Shown here piece after piece: positions 1 to 61,992 of a DNA stretch of 64,000 nucleotides; within the stretch, counting starts at the first letter, position 1, and each line of letters opens with the position of its first letter. The position numbers and the translations under genes are program-made. The notes under the pieces were generated by a model. That model was not told where the DNA came from. It worked only from the letters and a program-made list of their open reading frames with translations, and ran no database searches. Origin of the DNA: Dudresnaya verticillata (Eukaryota); NCBI GenBank assembly GCA_977862235.1, contig OZ374560.1, positions 1,674,001 to 1,738,000 on the forward strand, read 5' to 3'.

Positions 1-323
1 GGATCCTACAACAACAGTCGACTTCGGCGCGGACCCACCCTGAGGCGGAACCACAGCCGACAAGGATTGGCTCACCCACTCTATGGGCGAGCCGCTAAAA
101 CGGCTAGTAGCGACGCCGGCGGCCTGTAACAACGCGAGGACCGTGCGGCGCTGTTGTTCGGTCCAGACCGGCACGCTGGGAGGCTTCCCTGAACCGTCTA
201 CGACGATAGATGCTCCGCCTTCTGGCATTGCGGACGGGGGTGGCTCTGACACTGACACCGCCATAGTAACGTCACCCTCGTCGTCCGCAATGGGCGCCGC
301 AAGGTCCAAGGGAGCAACCGTGG

Positions 324-1705
324 CTATGCCGGTCGGCATCGCACTCGCCGCAGAGGCTCCGTGGGCAACGTCGTAGACGGAACAGCCGCTTCAGCGGAAG
401 ACTCAATCGCCATAGACGTCGCAATAGCCGTCCCAGACGAGTTAACCGGTCCACAGTTGGCGTGAAGAGCATCCTCTTCCACCATTAAGGCGCTTAAGTG
501 AGGAGGAAAGTCACCGACAAAGCCGCAGGTCTTACGCAAACCGCGCGGGTGATTACCCGGCGGGAAGCGATCGGTCTTGCGATGGCCTTCCGCAGTGTTC
601 TTCGTCGTACGACGCTTTGTCCAAGGGCTGAACCAAATCCAATCTCCACAGGCGGAATGAGTACGACTCATCGCGTAACGTGGACGATTCGCCTTACGGC
701 GGTTGTTGGCTAACAGCACGGTAACCGGGTCGTTCCAATCGATCTCATCCGCAATAGCGCGCAGGTCCCAGAACTCCTCGGAGTTCCTGGGAACACCAAA
801 TATTTCGACCAAGTCGAGGCCACCAAGATGGGTGACCACACGCGGTGGTAGATGATACATACGGAAGGCGTCATACACCTCCTATAACCAAGCATACACC
901 ACGATGGCGACCCACTCGGTGTAGAACACGATCCAATATCTAGAATATGGGTTGGTCATCAGCTCGGAACCAAGATATGTGATGCACGGGAGCTCTGCTG
1001 CGAAACCTTCGCATATCTCGAACTCACGCCATAAGGCGGTACCTTCACGAAGCAGTGAGGCAACTTACTACGCTCAATGCGGGTGACCTGCATGTCCTGG
1101 TAAGGTACGAATAAGCCCTTTCGGCGACGCGTCTCGTACTCCCAACGGATACAACGCTCCCAAAAGAACGTACCCCTGCGATGCAGGAAACGAAAATCCG
1201 CTTTCAAGCGTACACCTACTAGGTAAGCCTCTCCCAACATACGAGGCTCGAGCGACACCCTCACATGTTTGAGCGATAGCGTCCCGAGACGACCTCCATA
1301 TTCGGTCTCGGCGGCTGTACGATATTTCCCCGCGTCAAAATTGAAGAGGGGCGGCGTTAACGTCGACCCGGGGTAACGCGTGAAGCGCCGATAGACATCT
1401 GAGACGAACTGCGAGTGGACGTCCGCACGCGATTGTCCCGCTCGGACCCAAAGCCATTCCGGAGGAACGGCACAGCGCAACTTCCACTCTAACTTCCAGC
1501 CAAGGGGCAGGCCCCCTGGCAAGAATCCGCTAGTAGCGTAATGAGCGACCAATTACTCTTCGCGTAAAGCCTCCTGGTCGAACCAGCGGGCCCGCGCGAA
1601 GAAATGCGCGTGATCGCGAGGATTCTTCCCGATAAAGTCGACAGGCGAAGCGTACACCGGCGCGGCCGAGGGCGCCGCAACCTGCATGCCATTGAACGTC
1701 GGCAT
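324..1705 (-). pseudogene. Accessory ORF of the LTR element (copy 1), disrupted, unknown function
   Basis: Starts MPTFNGMQVAAPSAAPVY (ATG 1705). ORF pieces 1553-1753, 959-1552 and 324-878 join across a stop at 1553-1555, a 1-nt frameshift near 1030 and a stop near 885. About 70% aa identical (hand count, ~225 aa) to 38381-39060. Confidence 0.75.
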
Positions 1706-1707
1706 AA

Positions 1708-2065
1708 CGTCAAAGACGAAAATATGCTCGCGCCGCTGGCGACGAGTGTACAAACGTCAAAGACGACTCGTGTCCTGCGCCACTGGCGAAAGCTTCACGA
1801 AGAGTGCGTCGAAGACGATTAATGTCCAACGCCACAGGCGATACAAACAAACCTGCGCCACTGGCGAAAGTCTTACAAACGTACGTCAACGACGTTCTGT
1901 TGCAACGCCCCAGGCGAGGAAAAGAAACCCACGTCGACGACGTTCAGTTCCCACGCCACAGGCGATACACATAGAAGACAACGTCGATGACGATTGAGTC
2001 GCAACGCCCCAGGCGAGGGAAATCTGAAAGACGTCAACGACCAGGATCGTTTTGCGCCACAGGCG
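1708..2065. repeat. Phased array of 15 palindromes CGYC-N3-GRCG
   Basis: CGTC-N3-GACG at 1708, 1755, 1807, 1884, 1932, 1982 and 2032 (1 mismatch). CGCC-N3-GGCG at 1731, 1778, 1830, 1856, 1906, 1954, 2005 and 2055. Confidence 0.9.
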
Positions 2066-2267
2066 GTGATGTCGGGGCAGCGCAAGTGCAGTCGCACGGG
2101 CACCGCACGCAACAAGAGACGAGCTCTTACGGCACAGCCGAGATCGCAACGCACACGCGGGCGCACCAAGACAAGACGCGAAGCCGCAAGCGCTGGCAAG
2201 GACGAAGCGGGAGTGCGCACGGCAGCAGGTTGAGGGTCGGACGTGTTCGCGTTTTGGAGGGGGGTCG

Positions 2268-3166
2268 TGTGGTGCAAGGGGGGTGAGCCCCTTTTTCCGC
2301 TCAGAGCGTGCCATAAGACGTCTACTGACGGGTATCGCAACCGCCGCTGGCGCGCGTGAACACGCCACGGACGGCCGACTCAACGGCGTACGGACGCCAC
2401 AACCGCCGCCGGGCATGGCGGCTCACGCACTGTACGCCCGCGCGGCACGCATCCGCGTCGCCCATCGGGATCCGCGAGGTGTAAGGCGGGTACCTGTAAT
2501 GATGGCCCAGATCCGGATGGGATCTGGATCGGACATCGGGATCAGATCGGGATCCGCTACAATGTAAGGCGTGCGCCTGTAAGGCACGCCCACGCGCCAG
2601 CAATGCTGGCAGGGATCGGGATCCGAATCCGGATCACCTCTACCAACGCGCGCGCACGCCTGTAAGCTAGTTAATTACGCGCGCACACACCTGTAAGCTA
2701 TTTCTTACCCGCGGGCGCGCGGCTGCATGGCGACAACGACTCGTCAGACGCACCGGGGCGCGACACGCGTCCCGAGTTCCCATGGGCCACGGCGCGCCGC
2801 CGCAGCCCGCGTCATAATGATAGTATATTAGATAACCCGTCTGGGATGCCGAGTAAATCCCGGCAAGCCGGCCTCGGACATGAAGCCCCTTCGCTAGTGC
2901 GTATTCTACGTTACCAAAGAAGGCAACTGCGCAGCTCCGCCCGTGCTTCCGCGTCCGCCTACGTCCTTGACGCGTCTTTCTCTCTTTCTCTCCCTCCCCT
3001 TCCCTTTCTCTTTCCTTTCTGTGGCCTTTTCCCATTCTTACCGCCCAGGGCGTTGACAGTCCGCCGTCGGCGTGTTATCGACACTCTACCACAGCCTCGC
3101 TACTAGCGCGCTACCCCCGGGTCCGAACTGCCCGGAGGTACTACTCGTCCGAGACGGATTGCACCA
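2268..3166 (+). repeat. 3' LTR, TGTGGTGCAA family
   Basis: Starts TGTGGTGCAA and ends TTGCACCA. GATCC-rich GC-rich U3, TATA-like TAGTATATTA at ~2821, then a CT-rich segment. Homologous to 37065-37930 and 58020-58929. Confidence 0.8.
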
Positions 3167-3420
3167 AAATCTGAACCAGGTCGGGACCTAGAGAGCTTAC
3201 TGGCTACACCTTTCAAGAGTTCTTCGGGGTTCTCTATCCCGGGGCTCAGGTCGGCAGCATCGCCACGGCGTGTTCTCGTGGCTGAGGCTACCTCCGGTTC
3301 GGTGGGCTCACTGCGGCGTGTTCTCGCAGTAGAGGGCACCTCCGGGCCGGTGTTATCGTCACCGCGGCGTGATCTCGCGGTTGGCGGCACCTCACCTTGA
3401 TCCGATACGGAAGGGTCCAT
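3167..3420 (-). pseudogene. Probable gag N-terminus of another LTR element, cut by the LTR ending at 3166
   Basis: ATG at 3420 with three EV(P/A)xxxR(S/T)RR repeats. A PBS-like TGGTGTAAGGGCAGG lies on the minus strand at ~3475-3489, next to an LTR-like end (TGTCACA at 3499). Confidence 0.4.
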
Positions 3421-3498: not shown

Positions 3499-5060
3499 TG
3501 TCACAAAGCTGATCTCCTACCGAAACGGAGTCCAACGGAGATTCTTCTACCTTGACGGTCTTCTAGGTCGGGAGACCAAAAAGATGTGGTGTAGTGAAAG
3601 GCACAACTGTAAGGAGAGCTGGTCAGGCAATCCCAATAAGGAGTGATCTCACACGGCACCGGGGTGGTAGAGCTTAGTTCGTAGACCGAAGGGAGTACCT
3701 CGAGCGGCAACACCTGTAAGGAGTAAAGGGATGAAACATACAAGGGGGACGGTACACTGCCAGGACAGCTACACCGGGACGGAGGTAAGAGGAATCCGTG
3801 CACGGGGCTGGCGAGGGGAAACCGTGAAGGAATATGAGGGTAAGGCTTAGGGTAAGGCACTTTGCCCAGGGTTGCGTACCCGTTTACTGTAGGACTAGTC
3901 CGCGAGCTCGCGGTGGCCACCCATTAATATACTGGGAGATACACCCCGCGGTCCGGTCCGTGTGGGCCAGACCCCAATGGGTCCGGTCCACCATGTGGCT
4001 CCGCCCCTACTGGTCCCGGTCACCGTTGCGGACATGCTCGGCATTCTCATTGGCCAGCCGACACTACTTACTGTACGGCATCATTAAAATTACCTAATTA
4101 CAAATAAACCAACTACTTGGATCCTATTGGTGGTGCGCGCAGATTCCAGCAGGGCATACAGTGCTACTGTGTCGCTGCAATCCCGCTTCGCCTTTTGGCG
4201 CCAGCTCACTGGTGCGCCGATCACGATGTAGTAGTATGGCGCGACGAGCCAGTAGCCCGCTAAAAGGAAAGGGCAGCTGTCCCGTGCGTGCAAACACCCT
4301 AACGAGGGTAGCTCAACGGGGAGTTGGTAGAGATTTGAGGGAAAAGGGGAAAAGGCTATCGTACCTGAAAGAAAGGGAAAAGAGGCGGCGCCACACTAAC
4401 ACTCGTAGAGTACAAAGCCGTACGAGGCTAAAGCTTGTAATGCACCTGGAAGGGGGAGTACGGTGAGCCCGTGTAGACCAAAGAAAGGGTACAGACCCGA
4501 AACCCACCGTAGGGTTCTATTCAGCAGACCCCTGCTAGTCAGGGGCGCAATAAGTATGGCGAAGGCCGAATTGCCTTCGCCGCTATTGCTATTCTAAGCT
4601 ATCGTAGTTAGAGTTAATAATGACAATGAGGTAGTGAGCGGTCGTACTCCGCCCTGCGCACGTCAAGTGCCCATGACTCGGGCGAGATACCGAGCAAGAG
4701 GCCATGATAAATTAACCAATCACAGCAAGCCATCTCATTGGCGCCGTGCTGTTCCCAGCAATGCCATATGGAGTGGCCAGCAATGTACTGGGCCTTACAG
4801 TGCGTCAGTATGTGCGGCGCCTTACAGGCGCATGACGCGTGCAATGTTACCCGCGCATTACAGGCGCAAAACACGTGTACGTGCTTACAGCCCCTGGCGG
4901 CTCATTGTGCCACACGCGAGTTGGATCAAACGTCGTCTGCACTCCACAACGGCCGCTTCACCACAACTACCCGTCTTGTCCCTGCTGGCGCGCCATAGGT
5001 AACGCTATTTCGGCGCACACAAGAGGGCAGAGGGCCCACTTCTGTAAGCCCTTCACTGTA
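3499..5060 (-). repeat. LTR-like non-coding sequence (one or two degenerate LTRs)
   Basis: GGTCCGGTCC mini-repeats at 3950-4025, a purine-rich block at 4320-4390 resembling the reverse complement of 45430-45610, and TTACAG(G) clusters at 4795-4890. Ends and TSD not resolved. Confidence 0.35.
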
Positions 5061-7440: not shown

Positions 7441-8777
7441 AACGTCATTGTCAACACTTGGCCAATCCGAGAGATAAACCCGCGTGCTAGTATCTATAGA
7501 AAAGGGAATCATTACGTAAGTACATGCGGCGCGGGACGCTAATTCGCCACTTCAAACAGACGCTAGAAATGCGTTAGGCACGAGACAGTGACGATGAATG
7601 ATGACATAGCTTGGTAGCACAAGAGCTGTGAGCTAAAGCGAAGCATGAAAGAGCCGACTTTCTTCTACAGGACAAGTAACGCACCATTCAGAAGCAGAAC
7701 GACCAGTGGAGCCCATAACTTTCCGAGCTTCAGTGCGGGCAGAAACATATCTGCCAATTCCAGATACAAAGAAGTTCATTCTGTCTCCACGGGTCAGATC
7801 ATGGAAACATGCGCGCTTCGATTGTTTAGCAAAATGTAAGAAACCGTACCTAGTGTAGGCTGCCCTAACTATGACAGGGATTGCGGCTCTTCCGCTCAAT
7901 ATATCTGAAGATCCTGTCCACAACAAGTTCTCATCCGTTGGATCGCTGTGTGCTGGCTACTGTTCCCGTTCTGTAAGGTAAATTTGTTCGCTATTTCCTT
8001 GGATACTCCTCACATGTGAACAGTGTGGTCCTCGTCTACACTAAAAGAAAACCAAGCATATACGCCCCCATCGCTCTACCACGGTCCCAGTTAAGGCCAA
8101 GAGCAGGTTCGGGTATTGCGGTTTTGCTAGCGGGACATTGCCACGGAAACAGACTCTAAACAAAGCAAGATGTAAGTAGAAAATCAACGGGAATTCTGTG
8201 GACACGTGCACTGCTTGCTCTTTCGTAACGGTATCTCTCTCTCTGGATGGGAACACGGCCTCTCTGGGATCGCGGTGTAATGTTATACAGAGCGAAGGCC
8301 CGAGCGAGCTCAAGTGTCAAGAGCCCAATACGATTCGCAATTCTGGGATTGGCGCGTGGGCGTTCTGACCGCAAGTGGGTCTGTCCGATAGCATCAACAA
8401 ATGCGATGTTGTCGCCAGAGCTGTCGTCGAGAGCAACAAAAATTGGGTTCTTATTGACACCCCAAAGAGGGCGAACCGCTCCGTTCTTGAAACCTTTCGG
8501 GCCAACTTACATGCCTCGAGCTGCGTTCATGTGGACGCAGTATTGCGCGCACTTGTCTGTCAAAATTTGGGCGCCAAACTGTTGCTCCCGTCGTCCGCAG
8601 TTGTCGCCAGCCGAAGACTCGGCTCGCCAGCGAGCCCCAAACTTGCCTACATAAACCCCGCCCATGCCCCATCCCACCCCCACTGAGTCGCATCCACACT
8701 CACGCTAACAAACCACACACTCAAGCAAGAACCCGCCACTCTGCCCAACCCACTAGCCCCAGACTTACACACCAACC

Positions 8778-10340
8778 ATGGCGGACAAGACTGCCGAGAA
8801 GGCTGCCTCCGAGGCGCCGAACCCCGCTACGCCGAACCCCGCTACGCCGAACCCCGCCACGCCCAACCCCGCCACGCCCAACCCCGCCACGCCCAACCTC
8901 GTCACGCCCAACCCCGCCGCTTCGGCCCCTGCCCCGGACACTAAGATGGGCGCCCCAGAGGCTGCAGTCGAGAAGACCGAAGCTCCGAACACCACGCAGG
9001 TCCAGGAGATCAACACCAGCGACAAGGTTGGCGTGCCGAAAGCCGCCGATGCGCCTGCGCCGACCCCAACTACCGTCGCTACGAAGAAGGGTGACGAGAA
9101 GACCAAGGATGGAAGCAAGAGCAGCTCCGAGGCTACTACGGCCTCGGATGCCGCGTCTACTGCGTCGGACAAGATTGCCAAAACTGGTGAGATCAAGACC
9201 TGTCAGGACCGCAAGGTGGCCAGCAATGACAAGGATGGCGCAGCCTTGACCGCTGCTACGAAGGGATCGGCGATGAAGCCAGCCGAGAAGAACGTCAGCA
9301 AGGATGATTCCGTCCATGCGTCTGACAAACTTTCAGTGTCAGGGAAGGCTGCCGCTGAGAAGGACGCTGTTTCCGAGGATGTCTCGAAGGCTTCCTCCGA
9401 GGATACTATTACTGCTGTTGGCGGTAAGGGTACCCTGGAGAAGAAATCAGACACCGGAGAAGCCAAGAAGAACGGGCATGAGAAGTCTGTTGAGGTCAAG
9501 GATACGTTGGTGTCCAGCGCTGAGGATAGCTCCAGCGGCGCTGAAGTCAAGAGTGAAGCTACTGCGAAGACCGAGGATTCGGCCAATATTGGTGCTGCCG
9601 AAGAAGCCTCACTGGAAGATGTTACTAAGACTGCTTCATCCAGTACGTCTTCCGACAAGGTCAAGGACAATTCTGCTAAAGACGGAGCTGTTGCTGATAC
9701 CGCTGCTGTGAACAGTGAGCCCATCAACTTGTTGAAGATTGTTGAAGCCACTGCTAAGACCGAGGATGATGCTAAAGATGCTGATGTGGCACAGGTTGTG
9801 GTTGAGAGCAAGCAGAATGGCTCGTCTAAGGTTGAGCTTGCTGAGAAGAAGTCGAGCGCTAAGGCCAAGAAAAAGGTTGAGTTCAAGAGTGCGGAGGGCG
9901 TGTCGATTGTGAAGGTGTCTGGCAAGCCGCAGGACGTTAAGAAAGCGGAGCCGGATACGAAGGCTTCCGACTCGTCCCAGGGGGCTGGCAGTCGTGCTAG
10001 CCTGGAAGTCTTGGCTTCCGGCCCGTCTCGTGACATGGATCTTGCAAGCAATGAGAAGGACGCCGATAATATTACTCCGGTCAAAGCGGCGAAGGGGCTG
10101 GATTCCACTGCGGATGAGGCTACTGTAGGAGACGCTGCGGGTGCAGATGACGATTCTGAGAGCGGAAAAGTCCGTTGCTGGAACCTCTGGAACTCGCTAT
10201 CAGCGAAGAAGCACATGAACAGTCGCAAGAAGGTCAGTATCAAACCTGCAGACGACGTGGACGGCTCTAGCGACGGTGATGACGACAAAGAAGCCAAGAA
10301 TGTCAAGTCGGCTGATGCGGACGAGAACGAGAAGGCCTAA
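8778..10340 (+). CDS. 520-aa Ala/Lys/Asp/Ser-rich, probably intrinsically disordered host protein with N-terminal PNPAT repeats
   Basis: Long uninterrupted ORF, CCAACCATGG start context, CA-rich leader, CATAAA at ~8650, strong codon bias (AAG, GAG, GAC). No recognisable globular domain. Confidence 0.85.
   Translation: MADKTAEKAASEAPNPATPNPATPNPATPNPATPNPATPNLVTPNPAASAPAPDTKMGAPEAAVEKTEAPNTTQVQEINTSDKVGVPKAADAPAPTPTTVATKKGDEKTKDGSKSSSEATTASDAASTASDKIAKTGEIKTCQDRKVASNDKDGAALTAATKGSAMKPAEKNVSKDDSVHASDKLSVSGKAAAEKDAVSEDVSKASSEDTITAVGGKGTLEKKSDTGEAKKNGHEKSVEVKDTLVSSAEDSSSGAEVKSEATAKTEDSANIGAAEEASLEDVTKTASSSTSSDKVKDNSAKDGAVADTAAVNSEPINLLKIVEATAKTEDDAKDADVAQVVVESKQNGSSKVELAEKKSSAKAKKKVEFKSAEGVSIVKVSGKPQDVKKAEPDTKASDSSQGAGSRASLEVLASGPSRDMDLASNEKDADNITPVKAAKGLDSTADEATVGDAAGADDDSESGKVRCWNLWNSLSAKKHMNSRKKVSIKPADDVDGSSDGDDDKEAKNVKSADADENEKA
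8817..8921 (+). repeat. 15-bp coding tandem repeat: (PNPAT)x5, then PNLVT and PNPAA
   Basis: CC(G/C)AACCCCGC(T/C)ACG units read directly. Confidence 0.95.
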
Positions 10341-16506: not shown

Positions 16507-16802
16507 CATGTACAGATTGTGTTAGATTTGTGTGTTGATGTACCAACCAGTCTGGGCTACTCCCTGTTTCTGGCTGGTCTTTATACGGTAAGCAAAGCCC
16601 TACTACTACATTTTCGAACCTTTGCTTGCACGGCAGGAGAGTCCTCTCCGGGTGATAATTCCGGGGGAGTCTCCTGAAGAGCAGGACCGGAGAGTTTCTG
16701 CACTTCTGTCATTGTCAGGTAAACTGCATTGTTGTGGTGCATGTTGACCGTGATGAGTTCGTGTCACATTGAACATCATTGTGCCAACATTCCCCCTCGA
16801 AC

Positions 16803-20954: not shown

Positions 20955-21048
20955 GTTGTGGGAAGACTGACGAAAAAAGCGAAACGACGAGTTGTTACGA
21001 AACGATAGACGGTACGACAAGCGCAGATAGAATTGCGCGTACTAAAAC

Positions 21049-21057
21049 CCCATAACC
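21049..21057 (-). other. Primer-binding site complementary to the anticodon arm of initiator tRNA-Met (half-tRNA priming type)
   Basis: GGTTATGGG immediately follows the 5' LTR, with no TGG. Same type as Drosophila copia and yeast Ty5. Confidence 0.8.
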
Positions 21058-31078: not shown

Positions 31079-31444
31079 GGGGAGAGCCTTGCACCACGCC
31101 CTGCCGGATGTCCGCAGTCGTGTTTGTTGCGTCCCCTGCTGTACGAACGGAGCATGTGCCAAGCGTTGTGGCAATCATAGCGACCAAATGCGGGGGTAGC
31201 CGGTCAGCACACAACTGGAGGAGCTTGTGCCGGTCAACCATTTCGTAGGCTCGCTTGAGATCCAGGACAGCTGTGTAATCGTCGCCGGACGCATTCGAAG
31301 CGAGATTGAGGGCAACGGCCATTTCGGTACGCATTATTTACTCATTATTGTTCCTTCGAGTCTTTCTCTCCGTCTTCCTCACGCCCCTGCACACACCAAT
31401 CCCTCTCCTCCTTCGTCCTGTCCTTTTCGACTCCCCTTGCCGAC

Positions 31445-37064: not shown

Positions 37065-37930
37065 TGTGATACAAACGTCTGAAGACGGAACACCGCCGAG
37101 CAGTTCGGGGCTCGGTGGGTAGCTGCGCCCGTGGCGGTGAGTATTCTCGCCTTGGGCGGCTTGTGGTAGAGCATAGGAGACGCCTTGGGCGGACTGTAGA
37201 CGCCCGAGGCGGAAGGGAAGGAAAAAGGGAGCAGAAAGGAAACAAGTCAAGGACAGCGATAGACGTGGAAGCACGGGAGGTAAACGCTTGAGCCGTAGGC
37301 AGCGGTAGGGTACGTGCGTGCGGAACGGAGAAGTCTGGACCAAGGCCGGCTCGTCCGGGGTTTACTCAGCGTCTCAGACGGATTACCTCATATACTACGT
37401 GGGCGACGGCGGCGGGCGCGGTGCGCGGGAACTCAGGACGCGTGTCGCGCCGTCGAGTGTATGACACATCGTCGTCGATATGCAGCCGCGTGCGCGGGAG
37501 CTCAGGAGTAGCTTACAAGCGTGCGTGCGAGTAATGGGTGACTTACAGGCGCATGCGTGTAGCAGTGCGGGTGATCCGGATTCGGATCCAGATCCCCGCC
37601 AGCATTGCTGGCGCGCGGGCATTACAGGCGCGCTCCTTACATCATTGTGGATCCCGATGCCGGATCCCGATGACCCATCCGGATCCGATCCGGATCCGGG
37701 CCAAGCTTACACGCGTGCGCCTTGCGCCTTGCCGATCGGGATGATGCATCCGGATCTGCCCGTCCAGTGTGCGCGTGCGCCGTGCCGCGCGGGGTAACGG
37801 CGGCCGTGTGTCCGTGGGCCAATCGTCCATGACGTGTTCGCGCGCCAACGGCGGTTGAAGTGCCGTCGGTAGACGTTGGCATATTTATACGCTCACAGCG
37901 AAAAAGGAGCAGCCCTCCCCTTGCACCACA
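37065..37930 (-). repeat. 3' LTR, TGTGGTGCAA family (copy 2), inserted in a LINE endonuclease
   Basis: TGTGATACAA...TTGCACCACA ends. The adjacent minus-strand TTTTGCGAGGGGGTCG is PPT-like. Closely similar to 58020-58929. Confidence 0.85.
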
Positions 37931-38098
37931 CGACCCCCTCGCAAAACGCGAACACGTCCGCCGCAAGCTTGCGTTTTTCTGCGGATCCCACTTCGTCATG
38001 CGTGCGTTCCTGCGTTCCGGCTGTGTCGTGCTAACTTCGCGTGCTGCGCGTTGCGTCCGGCGAGCTCTCCCTCGCTCTCTCTCTTCACCGTGCATCAT

Positions 38099-38378
38099 CG
38101 CCGCTGGCGCATTGTGACGCCCGTCAACGACGCCACATCCAATTCGTCGCCTGGGGGTGTCAGCTGCATCTTCGTAGACGAGTTGTGGGAATCTCATCGC
38201 CCAAGGCGCAGGTGTTTCCCTCTGTGATGCAGCTCATCGTAGTCGCCTGTGGTGCGGAACAAAAGGCGTCCTTGACGTCAGCAAAAAGTAGAACCGCCTG
38301 TGGCGTTAGGCAGGAGTCGTCGTTGACGTTTGTTTGACCTTAAGCGCCAGTGGCGTAAACGAAGTTGCGTCGCCGATG
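38099..38378. repeat. Phased array of 12 CGYC-N3-GRCG palindromes (copy 2)
   Basis: Sites at 38099, 38122, 38148*, 38170*, 38198, 38219*, 38244*, 38267, 38295, 38318, 38345 and 38368* (* = imperfect). Confidence 0.85.
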
Positions 38379-38380
38379 AT

Positions 38381-39140
38381 ATGCCGACGTTCAATGGTGT
38401 TCAGGTCGCGGCGCCCTCGGCCGCGCCGGTATACTTGTCGCTGTACGACTTCGTCGGGAAGAACCCGCAGGATCACAGGGAAATCTTCGCGCAGGCCCCC
38501 TGGTTTTACCAGGAGGCCTTGCGCAATAAGGAGCTCATTGCTGATTACGCTACTAGCGGATTTTTGCCGGGGGGACTCCCCCTTGCCTTCTTCTGGACGA
38601 TGGATTGGACGTTGCGCTGCGCAGTGCAGCCCGAGTGGCTGTGGGTTCGCGCAGGGCAATCGCGTGCGGGCGTTCATGCCAAGTTCGTCGCAGACGTGTA
38701 TCGTCGCTCCACGCGTTATCCGTGCTCGGCGTTAACGCCGGCCATCTTTGAGTTTGATGCCGGTCAATACCGGACCAATGGTGAGATCTAATATGGGAAT
38801 CGTCTAGGGACGTTATCGCTCAAATATCTGAGCATCTCGGCAGAGCCGCGTATCAGATAGGAGGCGTACCTTCTGGGAGTATACTTGAAAGCGGATTTCC
38901 GTTACCAACACCGAATGGGTAAGTTCTTTTGGGAAGGGTGCATCCGTTGGGAATGTGAAACGAGTCGCCGAAAGGGCGTCTTTGTGGCCTACCAGAATAT
39001 GCAGGTCGATCATATCGAACGCAGTACGTTGCCTCACTGCTTCGTGAAGTTGCCGCCCGTGTGGCGAGAGTTCGAAATTTGCGAAGGTTTCGCTGCCGAA
39101 CTTCCTCCGTGTCTCACGTATATCGGGTCGGAGTTAATGA
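38381..39140 (+). pseudogene. Accessory ORF of the LTR element (copy 2), two in-frame stops, truncated after GSELMT
   Basis: MPTFNGVQVAAPSAAPVY...LPHCFVKLPPVWREFEICEGFAAELP, collinear with copy 1. Confidence 0.8.
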
Positions 39141-39141
39141 C

Positions 39142-41680
39142 GGACCGGTCCCGCGTCGGGCGATGAAAGCTCGTACGAAGACCGTCGCAGACGCAAGGAT
39201 CGGAATAGACGCCGCCGTAAGCTGCGTCATGGACGGAAGAAGAACCGTCATCGACGTGGGGATTCATCCTCGTCATCTTCGGACTCGTCAAGTGACGGAG
39301 ATTCATCTCACTCTTCGTCTGAAGAGGACCGTTTTCCGACCAACGGCAGTGACGGAGAGTCATCTCACTCTTCGTCTGAAGAGGACCGTTTTCCGACCAA
39401 CGGCAGTGCCGTGCGACCTCACGGAAAGCGGTACAAAGGGTTGAAGGAACTACGCCCCTCCAACCCCCTTTTCGATCAATTGCTATAGTATAGGACGTAT
39501 CGTCTCCAAGAAGTCCGACAGAAACGCTCGGGACGTGAAACGGGTAAGGTGAAGGACCATATCAAGCGCCTGGAGCTGACCATGAAGGACACCGCCTTTG
39601 ACGGCAGCGACCCCGTCATGATCCTGGAATTCCTAACGCAATTCGCGGATGAAGCGGATACGCTGGAGATGAGCGAGGCACAAGCGTTTGTCTCACTGCC
39701 GTACTTCTTGCGAGGTACGGCAGCCACGCAATTCCGGACCAGTCTACATTTTCACGCCACCGCGGCGGGGTGTCCTCGTATCCGGAGGATGTACAGTACC
39801 TCCTCCGTACTCATGCTACGCCAGCGGCGATCTGTGACACCGTCTTTGGCCTACGTTCGACCTTTCAGAAGCAAAGCGAGGACGAGACGACCTGTAGGGT
39901 ACGGCTTGCCGGGCCGTCTATCCGTTGCGGTAACGTGTACCCCGACTGGGAGGCGATGGCACTGTATATAGACGGATTAGACCCATCTATCAGGTCACTC
40001 GTGGCTCGCTTTCGAGAAGAAACACCAGCTTAGTGTTTCTTCTCGAAAGCGGGCCACGAGTGACCTGATCGAGTCCCTGAAGGACGGAATTGTCATTCGA
40101 GCGGTTGGTCCACTTCGCACAGGACGAAGGGGACTCCAACCGCGCACGACACGGCAAAGCCGGCTCCGCTTCAGAACGACGAGATAACCTGATACCGGCT
40201 CAAGCCACGCGTGCGTCGCGCCCCGCCACCAGCGATGCCCGAGGGGTACGCGTCAACAGACGAGAGGCCAAAAGCTCGGAGCACACGCTATAGCAGCGGA
40301 TTCTTCCGTCCAGTTCCAAGACGCTAGCCGCCATGTCGATGACATGGAGACACACGCCGATGGTGATCTCTACTTGGCAGACGAACAAGCGTCCATGCCA
40401 ACTTCGGCGTTGCCGACGGACAGCTACGTCGAAGACGAAGAAACAATGGGAATCGATCCTGCTCTCGCCTTTGGGCGTTCTGTTGTTCCCGCGCCACGCG
40501 TTCCGTATTCGGAGTATGCTCTGCACGTCCACCGGGAAAGGTCCGGGTGTCTGGACCGAGTTCCGTTCCGTCAAGATGCGCGTCGAAAGTTGGTATGCCA
40601 TCAATGTTACACTCGCGGGCATATCGCGCCAGGCTGCTTCCTCCGCATGAGCGACTTCATGAAGGTTATTACCAATTATGAAGGCTTAACCGACGCCGAG
40701 AAGGCGGATGTCCCTGCTGATGCGAACGTCCCTTGTAAGAAACGCGCGAGTCGCGACTCTGCCCGCCGTGCTGTCCGACCGCAATCGCCACGAGGCGGAA
40801 TAATGCCGCATGCGGCAGAACGTCACCCGACGATGATTAATCACTACGTAGCGCCACAACCACCGCCTGAGGCAAAAAAACTAAAAAGGGCACCGAATCC
40901 GGACACTGGAGGGCGTTGGCACGGAAGGAGGGCCCGAAGTTAGTTACTGATGACGCCAAGGGGCGGAAAGGATCGTTTCAGACGTCATTGAAACACACAT
41001 GGCGAAGGTACCACCCCTCAAGGCGAGGGGACAGATGTTCGCAATGGCCAAAAGGAACAAAAAGGTATACGCCGACTTGAGCGCAAACCGTTAGTACCTT
41101 GGCACGTAAACGCAGTGTCCTAGACGTGGGGGCTGGTCTGAATTTCATCCGTATTGACGACATTCCGCTGGAAGCGCGATCACGTATCGTGGCGAATGGT
41201 CTCCCCATCATATTCGACGCCAACAAGAAGGCCATTCAGACACGAGCAACCATCGACACCTGGTCTTACGTCTGGGATGGCGCGTCTTCAAATTGGAACT
41301 GATCGTTTTTGAACAGCTCGCTGCGCCGGTTATACTCGGTTGCGACTTTTGCCACCGCTTTGTCGAATCGATGTATCCGCGGAGTCGCGAGATTGAATTG
41401 AGGGGACTCGTATCCCTATAACGCGCCGTCCACTGCACCGACCCCCGTCGTATCCCCCTTTACCAACGAAACAGGAATACGGCAAGGCCGAAGGAAGGAC
41501 GTCGCCCAAGATACGAGCAACGGAGGGTACGATCATCCCGCCCCAGATGGAGCAATTGATATGGGTGACCACCGAGCGCGCCGGCGTTATTACGATTCAA
41601 CCGTTCGGAATGATGTAGCACAGACAAGGTCTGGCCGTTACGAACGGAATTTCTCAAGTCAAGGCGCTAAAAGCGTTCCG
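39142..41680 (+). mobile_element. Degenerate Gypsy gag and protease fragment
   Basis: FDGSDPVMILEFL gag core, CHQCYTRGHIAPGC knuckle, AAAAAAC-TAA at the gag end, VLDVGAGLNFI protease, VILGCDF. In-frame 57-bp tandem duplication at 39291-39407. Confidence 0.85.
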
Positions 41681-43399
41681 CATCAGATAAATCGATGTGT
41701 AACCAACACGTCCATATGACACTACATCACCATAAACTATGCCCTGTATGTTGCATACCGACAGCTTTAACCGTTACCTCTTGCGCGTGAAGGGTCGGAC
41801 GGGATGATTCAGGCCGCGAAAAAATGTACTTGACCCCAAACATTGCGGCGTCATGCACATTTCAACTGTCGATTTGTTCTCATAAACCTTAGATGCGGAT
41901 ACTCCAAATCAGAGATTCTGGAATACCCGCAAAAAATCTTGTAAGGCACCGTGAGCATCGTCCTGTCTTCGAAAGGCTCTAAGCAGGTCGCGATGATGTT
42001 TCCGGTGCATACGGCATGGCTGGCTCGAGCATGCACTATATTAATGAAGTACGGACATGTAGTTGTTAAATCAGCTAGAGCGGATCTTATCTCATTTTAA
42101 AAGCAACCCAAGATAGGTTGAGACAGGACCTGCGTCCGCTGGAACAGCTATGTGACCTTCTGAAGAGCAGAAGGTTTTGTGCCACAGGTTTCGAACTTAC
42201 CCCACTGGTTCGATTTGGAGCTATCAGATGCGGCCCTCAGGGAGCTTGCGGGGCGGTGGCGACTTGTTCTGGTGATAGGGGTGCTTGAACGGCAAGAATC
42301 GAAGGCATGGCGGATCGATGTTTGGGTCGATGGTCCACTTCGGGGAGTTGAAGGGCCCAAGATGGTGTCGCGGTCACGGAGCTGAAGAGCGACGTGTTAC
42401 CGGGTTTTATGATGCCGGATGAAAACGAAATGGGCTGCTGCAGTAGTTTATAACCAGCCGCATCGATGCTGTGAGGAACTAAAATGACGCTTTACACATG
42501 TTCGGAATCGACCCTGGGCAGTGCTAGAGCTACCTATTCTGGATGAGGGCTCCAAAGGAGATACATTTCGTCTCCCCTATGTTCCCAGAACGTTTCTGTA
42601 ATACGTTTCGCCCGAGCGGCAGGTGATCCTTGAGGAGGCCAGTATCGCGCCGAAAGGTCCCCATCTGGAGTGATTTAGCTAATGAATCTATCAATGAAGG
42701 CGTTGCGTCTAAGTCTCACATGTTCGACGTTCGAATGAGACGGCATGCTTCTCGGTTCAACGCTGATGGAATCCATGATGCCTTCAGACTGATAGTCATT
42801 TATCGCAACTGGGAATGGAGTCGGAGAAGCTCGGACACTTGTGTGCTGGACTCGGCGTTACAATATTGGAGACTATATGAAATACAACCATGTATTACAC
42901 GCGGATCAGGACCGTATCGTTCTTGCCACATAGTTTGGCTTGTATTATGTCCGTGTCTAGTGTATTTCTTAAGGCCTTTACCGCCCGTATACTCTATTGT
43001 CTATAGAAGAATGGAATGTCGGCGTAGAAAAGGAGACCAAACGGCTTGGGCCCCAACAAAGCCCTGGAGATATATTGGAATCCAAAGTGTCTTCGTAGCC
43101 TTCATCTGCTGCATCGGTTTTTAGATGCAGGCACTTTATGCCTCCACAAATTAGTCGCCCATCCCTAGCAGTCATTGCACTCTAACCTACCAGATGTATT
43201 CTTCCCGCCTTGGAAATAGGGATACTCTGTTCTCGATATCGACCACAATGGGACTGCCCGGATTCGAAATCTCGTATACCACACGGGTAAAGAGCAATTA
43301 ACCCCTAGGGTCAGCCACCAGCCTCAGACGAAAGTACGTCAGAACTGGCGGCGCTGCAACCATGAAGCTCAATGGTGCTTCCCAATGTTCGAACCAGGC

Positions 43400-45610
43400 T
43401 AGGGTTGCGGAATAGCAGGTGGATAGTTCACTGGACATAAAGGTGTGAACTTGCACGCACTGGTACGTCAGGAGGATACCGTAGCCGTTCCCCTAACGGC
43501 CCTCCCACCGCTGAGCTATGCCAATAGCTCGACGCGCTTTCCCGATCGACGAACTTGTAACAGAACGAGCGGTACTCTACCGGCAGAGTTGGGTGGTACC
43601 ACGCCCAGTGCGACTCGCGGAACGTATGCCCAATGTTGCTGTCCAGGATCCGGACCAATACTTCAAGTGTAGTATAACATATACGTAGTCCACAGAGAGG
43701 CTGGAAAGCCTGGAAGGTGTGAGGAAACACGAAAACACGGAGAAAGCGAATGGGGCGGTAGCGCGATAGAGCTGGCGACCGACGTCCAGGGCCGCGGTGT
43801 CAACGTATGCGTGTGCGGAAGGGAGAACTGCGAGCTAGTGATCGCGGGGGTAATCTCGGTGAGCGGGTCTATCGGAAACGAGACTCAACCGTATCCGTGA
43901 ACACGAACTCAAAGACACCGAAACATGAAGAAAAAGAGATTGCCGAAGACTCCGAAGTCCAGGCGCTAGTTGCTTACCCGGGTTCCTTCAGAAGTGGAGC
44001 TAGACTATTTAAATAGTACGTACACGGGTACATATGAACGTCAACTCGGGAAACGGCTCGCATCCAACTAATACGTAACAGCCTCGGATCCTACGAACCG
44101 TCACCTTACGTATTGTGGCGGTTACGCATCACGACAGCAATACACACTGGGGCACACGCGCATCATGGGCCTCGGTGTCGTTCGCGCAAGAAGTGACGGG
44201 AAAACACGGAGTTGTCAGCGATTTGGGATACAATAGCGCACTGTAATGCGAATTTCATCGCGGCGCGCGTAACCACGAAGTCATCTCGAAATTGATATTT
44301 TTCGATTGTTTTCACGTAGATCTCGGAGTCCGAGCACGGGGAGCCCTTATACCACATCGAGATAATCGACCTCGCCTAGCGTGCGATCCGTCCATGTTTC
44401 AACGTCCATCACTGGCGGGATGCGTTCTCTGCACAGGGTGCACTCGAGGTGGTCTAACAGGACCCGGACAAAGGCTCGGCAACTGTCTTGAGAGGTACGC
44501 CTATGGCGGTGAGTCAATGCCTCGGGGTTCATGTCAATACGGAACATCCAGTCACGACTAGTGGTTGCAAACACATGCAGGCTGCCCGGAGACGAGCCAG
44601 AGGCGTCCTTATAAACCTTAAATATATTCGGGTTGCGCGCGGACTCCATGTCAAACTATGAGGCTCTTTAGAAGGGCAGCGGGGTGCGTCCGATTGGCTT
44701 ACCCATACCTGAGATTCGGTTGAAAATCGGCTCGACGCAGGGACCGTCAAAAGTCCCGCGTGAGACAGCAGGCGATTTCGTAAATGGTCCATCTCGCCAC
44801 ACGAAGCGTAGGCATAGGAAGCGAGGTTGACTCACTCGATCGAGCACAGGTCGGCTCTGTTCTGGTTAGCCTTCAGCGACACGAAGGGGCAGCGGCGCCC
44901 CGGCTTATATTACCCCTTTTGCGCACCGCATTGAGGTGCAGAATCGAGGACGATTGGGGCCAGGCGAAATATTTTTTAGTGCTTTTTGAGTGTGGACGCT
45001 CAATGCTTCGATGGGGGATCTGCATTGCACTGGCGCCCACCCCGCTGGTCTAATCCAATTTCAAGTCCCCGCCTTACAGGCGCTCCTTTTTACAGGCGCA
45101 TCGTTGCCCACTGACTTACAGCACGTTCTACAGTTCGCACGAGCAGGCCTATTCAGCTCTCCTGTTCAGACCTATATTTTGACCTAGCGCTTACAGGCCG
45201 AAGTAGTGAAAGCGCGCGCGCCGACGCCGCCGCACCGGTGGTGGTACCACATATCCCCCTAGGGCTGCGCATCTGGTAAAAGGAGGGACATCGACCCTCG
45301 GGTCCAACAGTTCGGTGCCAAACGTGGAGTCGCGTGGAACCCGAGTAGCCTCAGTTTTGGGAAGTCGGTACCGGCCGAGTCCCTGTGACGCTATCTGCTC
45401 GTGTAAATCCATAAGCACAGATCGACCCCGTTTACAAGTTCTACCGAGAGCTCGGTACGGGCTAACCTACACCTACTGTCTATATTCTCCCTTTTCTTCC
45501 TTCCTTTCCTTTCCTTAGTGCCCCTCCACCTTTTCCCTTGCAGGGTGGTCTACCGCACCGCGCCCGGACTTTTCGGATGGCCTTACGATTATGCCTTCCT
45601 TTTCCCTCTA
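43400..45610 (+). mobile_element. Possible 3' end of another LTR element (PPT-like GGGGGATC ~45013-45020, LTR-like 45021-~45610) with opposite-strand ORF remnants
   Basis: TTACAGG clusters and a CT-rich block downstream of a G-run. Broken minus-strand ORFs start at ATG 44792. Confidence 0.35.
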
Positions 45611-45619
45611 TTGGGACCT

Positions 45620-46580
45620 TTAGAGGTGGGTTATAAGTGCTGCAAAATTGTAACCAATTGAGAAATAGCCGCACCGGAGAAGGTTTGTAATACACCTTCC
45701 CACACCCAGAGTCGGGAACATCCCGCATTTCTCACCAAATCCGGGCCATCCCTTGGCTTTTGGATAGCTTCTCGTCTGTAATGAACACCGAAACGTTGTA
45801 GTGTCTACAACAAGTCCAAGATGTTCACGTCTTGTAGTACCGTGTACCCAAACTATTTTCTGGGGTGTCCAAGCCCTAACTTGGGTAATAACGCCTCTAA
45901 TAAGGCAAATAGATTCACACAATCTTGAGATAAGCTTGGAACCGTAGCAATTCTTGTTACAAATATTTATTCGTTGACAAGTCGCACCGCCTTCGGCGGG
46001 GGCGGCGCTGCGCGCCGCTAGACCGCGCCTTCGGCGCGGGACGGCACTGAGTGCTGGTATGATAGTCCCCGCGCCGAAGGCAGGCGCGGGGTGTGACGGC
46101 GGTCGCGCGCGCACAAAAGTAAAGGACCAAATTAACAAATCACGCGCACAGCGAAGGTGTCGGCTGTAAGGAGCACCATCCAGCCAATCAATGGTGAGCT
46201 TTGCTGCTGCTGATTTTTTTCATTGGCGCTGCGGCCGTGTATTTTAGATATAATTTCGGATGCGTAGAAGCTATTTTGGTGCCAAGTGGATTTGTTGGCG
46301 CATCGATATAGAATTTTGTTTATTTTTCGAGACGTGGCCGGGCTATTACTACCCTTTGGGCGGTCATACCCCTACAAATTCTTATTACTATAAGGTAAAC
46401 AAGTCGCACCGCCTTCGGCGCGGGACGGCACTGAGTGGTGGTTAGTCCCCGCGCCGAAGGCAGGCGCGGGGTGTAACGGCGGTCGCGCGCGCACAAAAGT
46501 AAATAACCAAATTAACAAATCACGCGCACAGCGAAGGTGTCGGCTGTAAGGAGCACCATCCAGCCAATCAATGGTGAGCT

Positions 46581-46613
<33 letters not shown>

Positions 46614-47704: not shown

Positions 47705-47743
<39 letters not shown>

Positions 47744-49824: not shown

Positions 49825-50675
49825 TTTGGTGCAAAGCGTCTCCGACGGAAAGCAAGCTCAGGGAGTTCCAAGCCCGGCTGTTAGCGGCGTCAAAGGACGA
49901 AATATTGTAGAGAGAAATGGCAATGCCGCAGGGTGGTCTGTACACTCCCTAGTCGGAAGATAGGTGAAGGAAAATGGAAAAGGTAACAAGGACAAAAAGA
50001 TGCACGTTGAAGTGACGGTGGGAAACCACGAAGCAAGGTAGACCGAGTCATAACCCTCAGGCTACAGTCAATGGTACGTGCATTCCAAAAGGGGCATTCT
50101 GGTCCCAGGCCGGGCTACTGGGGTCTAAGGTGAGGTCCTAGACGGGTTGGCTAACTACTAGTGCTACTACGCGCGCGGCGGCGACAGTATGGCAAGCGCG
50201 TGGAAACTCGGGACGCGTGTCCATTCGCCGTGAGTCTGACAAGCGTCACGGCGATAAAGACCGTACTGCTGGTAGACGCGCTCGCGTCCCCGTGCGTGCG
50301 GCCAACGCATACACTTGCACGTGGTCACGACCAATCCTTACAGTACGAGTTCTGGAACAAATCGTGCTCGAGCGTGCTCCGAGTGCGCTCCGGCGGGCCC
50401 GCGCACGCGTGTACCGCGTGTACGCGTGCGGCCCGGTTACATTCCACGCCGTCCGCACTCGGCGTCCAGCTGTACCTGAGCCAAGGCCGATCTGGCCGGG
50501 GTTTGCACCCCTACGATGGGTTTCCTCCACAAAGCGAGCAGGTTCGCGCCCACACCCACTGAGCGGTTACGGAATTGTCCCAACGCCGAACGGCGGTCGA
50601 CACCCGTCGTCGATGGCGTTCACGTCAGCGGCCGTAGATTACTTCAGGAGTGCCGCGTGCGGTGTTTGCACCACA
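49825..50675 (-). repeat. Diverged, probably solo LTR, TGTGGTGCAA family
   Basis: TTTGGTGCAAA...TTTGCACCACA ends and the shared AACTCGGGACGCGTGTC block. Flanks GTCGC/ACTGC do not match as a TSD. Confidence 0.7.
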
Positions 50676-51779: not shown

Positions 51780-53400
51780 GCTTAAAAAGACGCGGTCATG
51801 CGGGGCCACGCTAATCCAAGACTTCGAAGGAATGGCGGGGAGTTTGGCGAGTTGGCGAGGGTATTCTGCGCCCCAAGCGCGATGCTGTAGGTTTGTAGTT
51901 CTTCAATAACGGGGGGCTGGGAATCATGGTAGCATTGTACTACAGCTTCATAGTATCTCGGGCTCGCCAATATCGTCTTGGTATCTCGGTGGTGAGCGCG
52001 GTTATTGCAGGTTGGCACAGGGACGGAGTGGGGAAGCGCTGTGGGAGGGTGGTGACGATGGGTGAGTGGTCACTGGCCACATCCGAGGTACCTTCCGCGA
52101 CATAGGGTTGTACCATGCGATCACCATTGGGGACTAAAAGGCGATGGTGCTTGAACTTTGTGCAACGCAGGAGACCGTACACTCGCCAAGGGGGCTATTA
52201 TACCTTCTAGAACGGGTCAATATCGCCAAAGGCGTTTGACTCTCGTTTTGAACGTTGGCGCGAAAACACCGCTCATTCGGCCTCTATCGTCGACGGCATC
52301 CGTGGACGCACAGCCGCTCGGGCCAAATTCGTGTACACGTGCATCCTCAGAATTTGGTGGCATGCAGACAAAAGGGACGCGTGCCGGCCAGACCTTCATC
52401 CGCTGATCGCGATTGGCACAGGCGAAACACGTGCGCATCCGGCGCCTTTAATGTGACAGTACTGTACGCCGGATGTGTCCACATGAACATTGGTGTAAGA
52501 CTACACGCACCTGTTGGTGGGCAGCGAGGTAATTGGATCAGGCGCTTAGCGGCTGCAGCGTGGTTCCGTTTATCAGAGACATGTGCGAACGCCACGTGTC
52601 CTTAGTTCTCGCGCACGCGTATCGCCGCTGCTAAGCCGCACGTCACGTCCATCGGCGGCGATACTTCGGTAAACCACCGATTAAGGCTCAGTAAACCCCC
52701 TGTAAGCCATCCTCGCACCTGAAAGTCCTTTCCGGATATTCTGTCTAATCCTACCACTAGCGCTAGGCCAAAAGGTCAGTACCATCGTGCTTCCAAGTCT
52801 ACCGTCGTCCTAGACGTGCTCCTCTATTTTTGCTCCTTTTACTTTCCGTTCCTACGTATCATACCGCCCAGGGCGTTAGAGTCAGCCTCGAGGCGTTTTA
52901 ATTTGCTCTACTACCACCGTCTACGGTGGGCTTGAACTCCCCTGCCGTGTTTCTCGTCTCTGAAATTTGCACCACATCAACCGCGGCTGCCACTTACACT
53001 GTGCAAGGTCGGTAAAGAAGGGCGGAGATTGTTAACGGGTTCCGAAAGCACCACATTGATATGCCGAGATCGAAGTCAATACCATTCCACACAGCAGAAC
53101 GCAGCAAGGGTCTCATACCCACGAAGGGAAGCCCTGTCGGCCTGCCTCCAAAGCAGCTACTGCCATTAGTCGCAGCGGCCACGTCAACGGCTCCACACGA
53201 CACAGAACTGGCCACATCATCGCAAGTTACGAAATCACCATGGCAAATGTGTGGTGCCTCACCCGGATCTCTGGGCCTGATAACGGCTAAAAGACGGGCC
53301 ACACCGTGTCGAAAGATGACCCACCCATACTCCACAAAAACGAAATTCCAGGATCCCCCCAGCACGGCAGGTAACGTCAGCCCGACCTCGAAACACGACG
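51780..53400 (-). mobile_element. Degenerate LINE endonuclease remnant interrupted by a solo LTR
   Basis: PTLHSVSGSRG|STI...QPYVAEG...SDHSPIV...TKTILASPRYYEAV parallels the LINE at 36000-37064. Confidence 0.6.
52157..52976 (+). repeat. Diverged solo LTR, TGTGGTGCAA family
   Basis: TTTGTGCAA...TTGCACCACA ends, TSD TGAAC/TCAAC (4 of 5), ACCGCCCAGGGCGTT shared with the LTR at 2268-3166. Confidence 0.7.
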
Positions 53401-58019: not shown

Positions 58020-58929
58020 TGTGGTGCAAAACGTCTGAGACGATAGACCGCCGAGCAGTTCGGGGCTCGGTGGGTAGCTGCGCCCTTGGCGAGAGGTGGT
58101 CCCGCCGTGGGCGACTTGGTGGTAGAGCAAAGGAACACGCCTTGGGCGGACTGTAGACGCCCGAGGCGGAAGGTGTGAAGGAAGGGAAAAGGAAACAGAA
58201 AGGGAACACGTCAAGGACGATGGTAGACGTGGGAGCACGGGAGGTAGGCGCTTAGCCGTAGGCAGCGGTAGGATGCGCGCGTGCGGAACGGGGAAGTCTG
58301 GACCAGGGCCGGCTTGCCCGGGCGTTTACTGTTACGTCTGGGACGGCTTACCTAAGTATAGTACGGCGGTGCGGCGGCGGCGGTGCGTGTGCGTAGCGCG
58401 GGAACTCGGGACACGTGTCGTCCCGAGGCGCGTCTGACAGATCACCGATTGCATGCAGCCGCGCGCCTGACAGGTTGCCGTGCAATCCCCTTTATGGGTG
58501 CTTACACACACACGTGGACGCGTGGGCCTTACAACCGTGCGTGCGCGCGCACTGTAGAGCGTGCGCATTAGATCTAATCCGATACTTGTCCGATCCCGAT
58601 CCCATCCGGATCGGGCCAGCAATGCGAATACCCGCAGCTTTACAGGCGCGGATCTTACAGCTTAGGCGATCCGGATAGCCAATCTGGATACCGGATCCGG
58701 ATCCCATCTGGATCCGTATTACAGTGTCCCGGGGCGCCACGTCGGGCCATCACCGTACAGTGCCCGCGTGGCGCGCGGCGCGCAGTGTGCGCGGGCGCCC
58801 CAGTGAGCCGTCGATGACGTGTTCGCGCGCCAACGGCAGTGGTGAGCGCCGGTGGCGGTTTCTCCGTCGGTCGACGTATTTGGTCTTCCCGCTTTCAGCG
58901 AAAAAGGGCTCACCTCCCCTTGCACCACA
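58020..58929 (-). mobile_element. 910-bp solo LTR (TGTGGTGCAA family) inserted in the Copia protease region
   Basis: Perfect 10-bp inverted ends TGTGGTGCAA/TTGCACCACA and perfect TSD CCTGA (58015-58019, 58930-58934). Removal restores HFAVSG|HGGSACIG. Confidence 0.95.
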
Positions 58930-61900: not shown

Positions 61901-61982
61901 GTGACATTCTGACGGATATCCTTGGCACTCTGCGCCGGCTCAAACTTGCAAAAGCCTAAGAGACGGGTACTTGTCGACGGTA

Positions 61983-61992
61983 ACTTATAAGT
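61983..61992 (-). other. Palindrome ACTTATAAGT at the PBS position
   Basis: Overlaps the last base of the 5' LTR. No TGG-type PBS is present. Confidence 0.7.

Follow-up and report, generated by a model that had tools for sequence, protein, structure and literature searches.

A decayed LTR retrotransposon of the red alga Dudresnaya verticillata bears a conserved accessory gene, probably antisense, next to an array of paired palindromes

RESULTS

LTR copies in a window of nested transposons

The whole stretch of DNA analysed here, 64 kb long and referred to as the window, is made of nested transposons. When it is compared with itself, positions 955-1788 and 2238-2877 align with 39141-38295 and 37960-37340, in inverted orientation and with 73-75% identity. 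The two diverged copies have in common the order LTR, T-run and G-tract, palindrome array, 2 nt, ATG of an accessory open reading frame (ORF), which is the arrangement that an earlier note on this DNA had claimed for both. The element and its relatives comprise the following features.

1..1705, minus strand: accessory ORF, copy 1, broken; conserved core at 525-1705, low-complexity tail probably beyond the window start
1708..2065, no strand assigned: palindrome array, copy 1; 15 sites, of which 14 are perfect; seven CGTC/CGCC pairs (22-23 bp) and a CGCC site in addition
2238..2267, plus strand: conserved 30-nt block, copy 1; T-run, PPT-like G-tract at 2256-2264, TCG, then the TG of the LTR
2268..3168, plus strand: copy 1 LTR, 901 bp, likely a 3' LTR; six CGYC-N3-GRCG sites at 2342, 2363, 2962, 3042, 3062 and 3146; TATA-like box near 2824
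37065..37930, minus strand: copy 2 LTR, 866 bp, 71% identical to that of copy 1; 7 sites
37931..37960, minus strand: conserved 30-nt block, copy 2; T-run and G-tract
38099..38378, no strand assigned: palindrome array, copy 2; 10 sites when one mismatch is allowed, 7 of them perfect
38381..39140, plus strand: accessory ORF, copy 2; the first 253 codons, with two stops, truncated at 39140
39141..41720, plus strand: stretch taken, from its motifs and by eye, to be a decayed gag with a protease-like part (CX2CX4HX4C knuckle; LDVG...ILGCDF); no Pfam match
43304..43510, minus strand: third gene copy, second fragment (profile E 2e-14)
44338..44694, minus strand: third, distant gene copy, N-terminal fragment (profile E 8e-20), without an upstream array
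45021..45644, plus strand: candidate LTR upstream of the third gene copy, preceded by GATGGGGGATC; judged by eye from its motifs, without a match to the family LTR profile
49825..50675, minus strand: distant LTR of the same type, about 52% identity; 2 sites
52158..52976, plus strand: distant LTR of the same type, about 52% identity, 5' end uncertain; 3 sites
58020..58929, minus strand: solo LTR inside a Copia-like element; 9 sites; 5-bp target duplication TCAGG on both sides

The shared repeat is a genuine LTR, because its solo copy (58929-58020) is flanked by the TCAGG duplication, whose length lies within the 4-6 bp norm; this copy is a TG...CA repeat with a short terminal inverted repeat. 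The termini of the repeat are TGTGGTGCAA and TTGCACCACA, and copies 1 and 2 have the variants TTG(C/T)A(C/T)CA(C/A)A at the distal end. The identification of the LTR in the earlier note thus stands, with its end in copy 1 moved from 3166 to 3168. The outer end of the copy 2 LTR falls within the endonuclease region of a LINE. No intact element of the LTR family is present in the window.

The 30-nt block (TTTT, G-tract, TCG) abuts the LTR and is near-identical between copies 1 and 2, while its flanks are not. In both copies its PPT-like tract consists of a T-run and 7-9 purines and ends 3 nt from the TG; it is short and was judged from the sequence. Including this block, LTR and array are 202 bp apart in copy 1 and 168 bp apart in copy 2, and in both copies 2 nt separate the first array site from the ATG.

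Several observations were made in passing on these LTRs and their surroundings. The U3-like part of the LTR (2480-2720, 37540-37760 and 58540-58720) contains repeated GGATCC/GATCGG and CCTGTAA motifs; further LTR-like stretches (about 4790-4890 and 45070-45200) have TTACAGGCGC motifs in reversed form. Just past the copy 1 LTR, at 3250-3420, a degenerate direct repeat of about 45 bp (CGCGGCGTG-TCTCGC core) occurs three times and probably belongs to another element.

The rest of the window harbours a young Copia element (16520-21327, minus strand) with 270-bp LTRs that are 100% identical, a target duplication CAATC, the primer site GGTTATGGG and the PPT GAGGGGGAA; one in-frame TGA, at about 19032-19034 in the integrase region, breaks its otherwise open polyprotein. 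An older Copia-like element (53892-62594, minus strand), with 607-bp repeats of 95% identity and many stops, hosts the solo LTR. Two LINE-type elements are placed face-to-face, one with a long open RT frame (31310-35700, plus strand) and one with the endonuclease region in which LTR copy 2 ends (35700-37064, minus strand). Finally, an open 527-aa low-complexity frame with seven PNPAT repeats at its start (8757-10340, plus strand), without a Pfam match, is likely a host gene.

The accessory gene evolved under purifying selection

Both close copies of the accessory ORF are decayed. Copy 1, whose open frame leaves the window at its start, is interrupted by stops (1555 and 884) and by one frame change near 1040, with a probable second frame change near 330-390; copy 2 has stops at 38789 and 38858. 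The ORF is conserved, as the earlier note had it, but is intact in neither copy.

The two copies share 75% amino acid identity over 244 codon pairs, against an earlier estimate of about 70%, and the excess of third-position changes noticed at that time is confirmed: differences are distributed as 44, 27 and 99 over the three codon positions, third positions accounting for 99 of the 170. A dN/dS of 0.18 (bootstrap 0.12-0.27) was computed from these 244 codon pairs of two copies, far from the value near 1 that had been named beforehand as speaking against the proposed module. The other five frames of the region contain 10-15 stops. The accessory ORF has therefore evolved under purifying selection.

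A third gene copy, distant and badly decayed, is present as two fragments about 800 bp apart, with other sequence intervening (43540-44330). As it has no array, the array accompanies two of the three gene copies; absence from most ORF-bearing copies, which the earlier note had counted as an argument against pairing the array with the gene, thus applies in part, to this third copy.

The accessory protein belongs to a large family with a confidently predicted core

Word-seeded searches with single pieces of the window found no homolog, whereas searching all of 1.84 billion cluster representatives exhaustively yielded 166 of them at E<=1e-3 and 67 at 1e-10. The best homologs are 29-39% identical to the accessory protein. 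Thirty clusters were looked up, of which two are named, both as hypothetical proteins of Gracilariopsis chorda, the others being ENA, Logan and JGI records. The two G. chorda clusters hold 4 and 5 proteins of at least 90% identity, spread over scaffolds of nine different lengths, a multi-copy scatter that looks like the pattern of a mobile gene. Intact natural members of the family occur in this alga (e.g., PXF40140.1 and PXF47025.1), annotated as hypothetical genes of the host. Related DNA was looked for in viral contigs, metagenome contigs and prokaryote genomes, and none was found there.

Domain searches returned next to nothing. None of the 55 homologs scanned among the 150 listed matches Pfam at E<=0.01, and none of these 55 bears TRP28 (PF04195), DUF1985/DUF287 or a plant-mobile-domain signature; pieces of the window itself have no Pfam match at E<=0.08. 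Among 40 aligned members, one gives a single weak NCBIfam match (E 0.0095) and none matches PHROGs. A sequence search of the PDB with the core domain was negative, and the ESM Atlas gave no usable match for the two homologs queried.

Full-length members consist of a core of about 380 residues and a low-complexity tail. The AlphaFold2 model of the core, from an 89-row alignment, is mostly helical (pLDDT 92, pTM 0.90). Foldseek searches of the PDB and viral libraries gave nothing at E<=0.001, and the best VIA-align Z was 2.4; neither a MAIN-like fold nor a known DNA-binding fold was among the matches listed for the solved structures searched. The core was searched as a whole, rather than by sub-domain, against solved and viral structures, so that a missing match is not proof of a new fold.

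Conserved charged columns of the core number 14 basic and 14 acidic ones; residues 71-105 and 176-210 form net-positive blocks, and the median net charge in 51 homologs is 0. In the 89-row alignment no His or Cys column is conserved above 0.48, and the His/Asp ligand pattern of 2OG-oxygenases was not found. An env-like reading of the ORF was considered and rejected on hydropathy, as there is no clear transmembrane segment: the median of the best 19-residue value is 1.39, and 3 of 51 homologs reach 1.8.

Behind the low-complexity tail, 35 of 73 long homologs have a short C-terminal two-helix motif (35 residues, FL-x-x-x-G ... LR), modelled with a pLDDT of 83. Its fold matches are weak and tied (best Z 3.8, rmsd 2.9, 50 aligned) and include several HLH domains and one SAP domain (Z 3.3). 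A resemblance of this motif to SAP/HeH is thus not established, all its matches being of this kind; it may be a dimerisation module. In copy 1, an apparent match to the motif near the window start is no better than shuffles.

Taken together, homologs and model describe a real, old, mobile and folded protein, not recognisable as gag, pol or env. This agrees with the earlier claim that the ORF has no gag, PR, RT, RH, IN or env motif, for which the Pfam result on the 55 homologs and the absence of a fold match now speak.

The accessory gene is likely antisense, in a 3' position

The sequence suggests that the accessory gene is likely antisense and in a 3' position. The earlier note had placed it antisense between pol and the 3' LTR; the side of the PPT-like tract and the third gene copy support this, whereas the gag next to copy 2, which runs in the same direction as the ORF, argues the other way. 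We infer the position between pol and the 3' LTR, since no pol adjoins either copy 1 or copy 2, and neither RT nor IN was found in 41700-43300. The young Copia of this window has a PPT, GAGGGGGAA, that directly precedes TG, and the G-tract ahead of the TG of the LTR family looks similar to it. The third gene copy (44694-43304, minus strand) is antisense to the gag at 39141-41720, and has its own G-tract and candidate LTR upstream, on the same side. The protease-like stretch and this third copy are separated by 41720-43300.

Under the antisense model, the gag at copy 2 calls for an inversion or a nested insertion, because it is joined straight to the ORF in the same direction. The reverse orientation would do without either: the ORF would be a sense extra gene between the 5' LTR and gag, with the array in the leader, and one deletion would have taken the end of the copy 2 ORF together with the start of gag. 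That the ORF runs straight into a gag of equal composition (GC 0.56 and CpG o/e 1.32, as in ORF copies 1 and 2 and unlike the third copy) fits such an arrangement, which is compatible with any model of binding. We nevertheless hold it to be unlikely, as four observations oppose it: (i) the LTR would be followed by CGACCCCC, which lacks TGG, unlike the primer site of the Copia in the window (GGTTATGGG), (ii) a T-run and a G-tract precede the TG on the opposite strand, (iii) in the TGTGG orientation, repeated motifs stand before the TATA-like box and a pyrimidine tract after it, and (iv) the third gene copy is antisense to the gag.

The array is built of paired palindromes that recur in the LTRs

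The arrays are built of a composite site, CGTC-N3-GACG followed 22-23 bp further on by CGCC-N3-GGCG. The two types alternate: all 11 clear CGTC-to-CGCC intervals measure 22-23 bp and the return to CGTC takes 24-29 bp, a count that omits one longer gap and one degenerate unit of copy 2. The phased palindrome array of the earlier note is thus found again, with a phasing that is fixed within pairs and looser between them instead of even throughout.

The pattern CGYC-N3-GRCG occurs 66 times in the window where 5.4 are expected, a number reached by none of 100 shuffles, and 14 times instead of 0.07 in 1706-2070, the motif having been picked from the very array tested. In the non-coding DNA of the family, 43 sites have a 3-nt centre, vs. 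at most 5 for any other length from 0 to 8. Perfect palindromes make up 42 of these 43 (25 CGCC/GGCG and 17 CGTC/GACG), so that the arms co-vary, and the centres comprise 27 different triplets. In the nine composite units that have a 12-nt inner spacer (two 11-nt units being left out), mean identity is 96% in the arms, 49% in N3 and 30% in the inner spacer.

The motif does belong to the array, as had been noted before, but is also found in the LTRs. Close LTRs have 6-9 sites each, located near the 5' end, just past the TATA-like box and near the 3' end. When sites were defined in one LTR copy and scored between the other two, the arms were conserved at 133 of 156 positions (85%) and N3 at 30 of 57, compared with 69% for the background and 67% for other CpG. 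By contrast, no site is present in two Copia and two LINE stretches (18.4 kb), where about 1.5 are expected, and the number of sites drops with LTR divergence, from 6-9 in close to 2-3 in distant LTRs. The gag stretch has 6 matches vs. 0.6 expected, which we discount because three of them fall in a run of arginine codons. Elsewhere, three to four diverged units of 390-450 bp with TGC runs, each with CGCCTTCGGCG, lie at 45977-47927; apart from the LTR family, the motif is clustered nowhere else in the window.

The array might be a neutral product of tandem duplication, as weak 48- and 76-bp periods detected there by Tandem Repeats Finder and the frequency of such arrays in this region of Retand elements could suggest. 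This idea is largely refuted and retains a very slight probability, for spacers are near-random in identity while arms and spacer length are kept, and the dispersed LTR sites are conserved as well. On the sequence evidence, the conservation pattern is like that of a protein-binding site under selection, and does not by itself name the binder.

Another reading is that the sites act as hairpins in RNA or single-stranded DNA (4-bp stem, 3-nt loop) and are recognised, much as in Rev/Tat systems or at a packaging signal, by either Gag or the accessory protein. Base-pairing would also produce the near-perfect co-variation of the arms (42/43), the loop is free in sequence, and the folding of the array has a z of -1.5 to -3.5. 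On the other hand, the pairing probability of the hairpins is mostly low, exceeding 0.5 in 2/14, 3/14, 1/7 and 3/7 sites in the four strand/copy folds; flanks do not lengthen the stems, no site changes type between copies, the rigid 22-23 bp spacing fits duplex DNA, and no Rfam match was obtained. We consider such hairpins quite improbable. No tRNA match was found either. Likewise, the structured leader proposed in the earlier note is not supported, because hairpin pairing is low and copies 1 and 2 have no common overall fold.

The same note had suggested that the protein and its CpG-rich array may form an autoregulatory or anti-silencing pair. Between LTR copies, transitions at CpG number 7 of 21 and 12 of 41, vs. 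27% and 39% expected from base counts. As CpG transitions are not enriched in these two LTR pairs, a protection from CG methylation is not supported. According to a review, methylation in G. chorda lies mostly outside CG, and repeats of Cyanidioschyzon carry H3K27me3 (PMC8566409).

DISCUSSION

Possible regulation of the element by its own accessory protein

Our results point to the accessory-gene end of a decayed LTR element, likely of Gypsy type, whose protein is likely made from an antisense transcript and likely binds the paired palindromes to regulate its own element. We favour this reading as a whole, in a tentative way. An antisense transcript would yield the protein from a gene lying between pol and the 3' LTR. 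Each palindrome would be the target of one dimer, and the 22-23 bp pair, with its distance of about two helical turns, that of two dimers. The sites ahead of the ATG would provide feedback on the accessory gene; the gag-pol promoter, in the 5' LTR, would be governed by those at the LTR start, just past the TATA-like box and near the LTR end. In effect, this would most likely amount to a family-specific activation, or a protection from chromatin silencing, rather than a CG-demethylation.

Some of our findings do not favour a regulator: the core is neutral, with as many conserved acidic as basic columns, searches with its model brought up no DNA-binding fold, and no array accompanies the third gene copy. 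The array-bearing copies studied are two, both in this window.

A host transcription factor could alternatively bind the palindromes and drive both the LTR and the antisense promoter, while the accessory protein would act elsewhere, in particle assembly, nuclear import or the blocking of a host silencing protein. The same neutral charge, unmatched fold and array-less gene copy would be in line with this, and site conservation indicates a binder without saying which. However, the sites are confined to the LTR family among the elements tested, their number falls as LTRs diverge, and where they are densest they reach, in copy 1 as in copy 2, to exactly 2 nt from the ATG, all of which speaks against a host factor. 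We see it as a somewhat unlikely explanation.

Coming back to a protein of the element itself, one bolder possibility, about which we have considerable doubt, is that it is a sequence-specific DNA binder of a new fold, antisense-encoded, reading the paired palindrome at both promoters and shielding or activating its own family only. A self-recognition of the VANC kind would then have arisen a separate time, in a retrotransposon, and over 100 subfamilies would show co-evolution of protein clade and motif.

The role of antisense extra genes in LTR retrotransposons is stated to be an open question (PMC7264820; PMC11963269). In the present case, a sharply defined candidate site accompanies the candidate protein, which belongs to a large family with intact members in G. 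chorda and a confidently predicted domain that has no match among solved structures. If binding were true, element-specific anti-silencing would extend from DNA transposons to retrotransposons, and this would bear on the expansion of LTR elements in red seaweed genomes.

Comparison with known systems

The protein family and its site appear to be undescribed: no description of either in red-algal LTR elements was found in the literature searched, although an annotation of the ORF in Repbase is possible. In plant Gypsy elements (Retand/Tat, Grande gene23, RIRE2), antisense additional ORFs sit between pol and the 3' LTR; their function is given as unknown and a regulatory role has been proposed (PMC7264820; PMC11963269). 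For Retand elements, 97% of the clusters with antisense ORFs are reported to have TRP28 and about half of the elements to have tandem arrays, and the survey finds Retand confined to monocots and eudicots (PMC11963269). The element described here is similar to Retand/Tat in having an extra gene that is conserved and likely lies antisense, close to the 3' LTR, and in a tandem array in the same region, present in two of the three gene copies. It differs in that its protein has neither TRP28 (PF04195) nor any other Pfam domain, its host is a red alga, and its array consists of a definite composite palindrome also present in the LTR.

In red algae, Plavaka DNA transposons carry the accessory gene PAG3 beside inverted-repeat arrays, for which binding to the own element has been proposed; PAG genes move between transposon families, and PAG1 is described as having no known domain (bioRxiv 10.1101/2025.02.11.637652). 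The neighbourhood of a transposon accessory gene and an inverted-repeat array is the same here. However, Plavaka is a DNA transposon and PAG3 has ParB-like and 2OG-oxygenase domains, whereas our protein is mostly helical and without a conserved His/Cys pattern. Large En/Spm elements with extra ORFs are known in Chondrus (PMC6431247).

VANC proteins, which counter silencing in the VANDAL transposons of Arabidopsis, bind short motifs amplified in tandem, and both binding and demethylation have been shown (PMC5735166); their fold is MAIN-like (PMC13547354). The likeness lies in a family-specific short motif, dense in non-coding DNA and tandem-amplified (here within one window), and in a protein with a conserved domain and a variable region. 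On the other hand, VANDAL belongs to the Mutator-like DNA transposons, the motifs of VANC share one orientation and are not palindromes, and VANC has DUF1985/DUF287 and a MAIN-like fold, whereas the present protein has no Pfam match. TnpA, which activates Spm copies (bioRxiv 10.64898/2026.08.24.746577), provides a further likeness in layout, being an accessory protein encoded by its element (Spm/CACTA) and acting on cognate copies via repeated sites near the ends; it differs as part of a DNA transposon and by its transposase-derived tandem HTH domain, a fold that was not matched here. As far as sequence comparison goes, the element thus departs from its known counterparts in the domain tests for TRP28, VANC and PAG3, and resembles Retand, VANC and PAG3 in layout.
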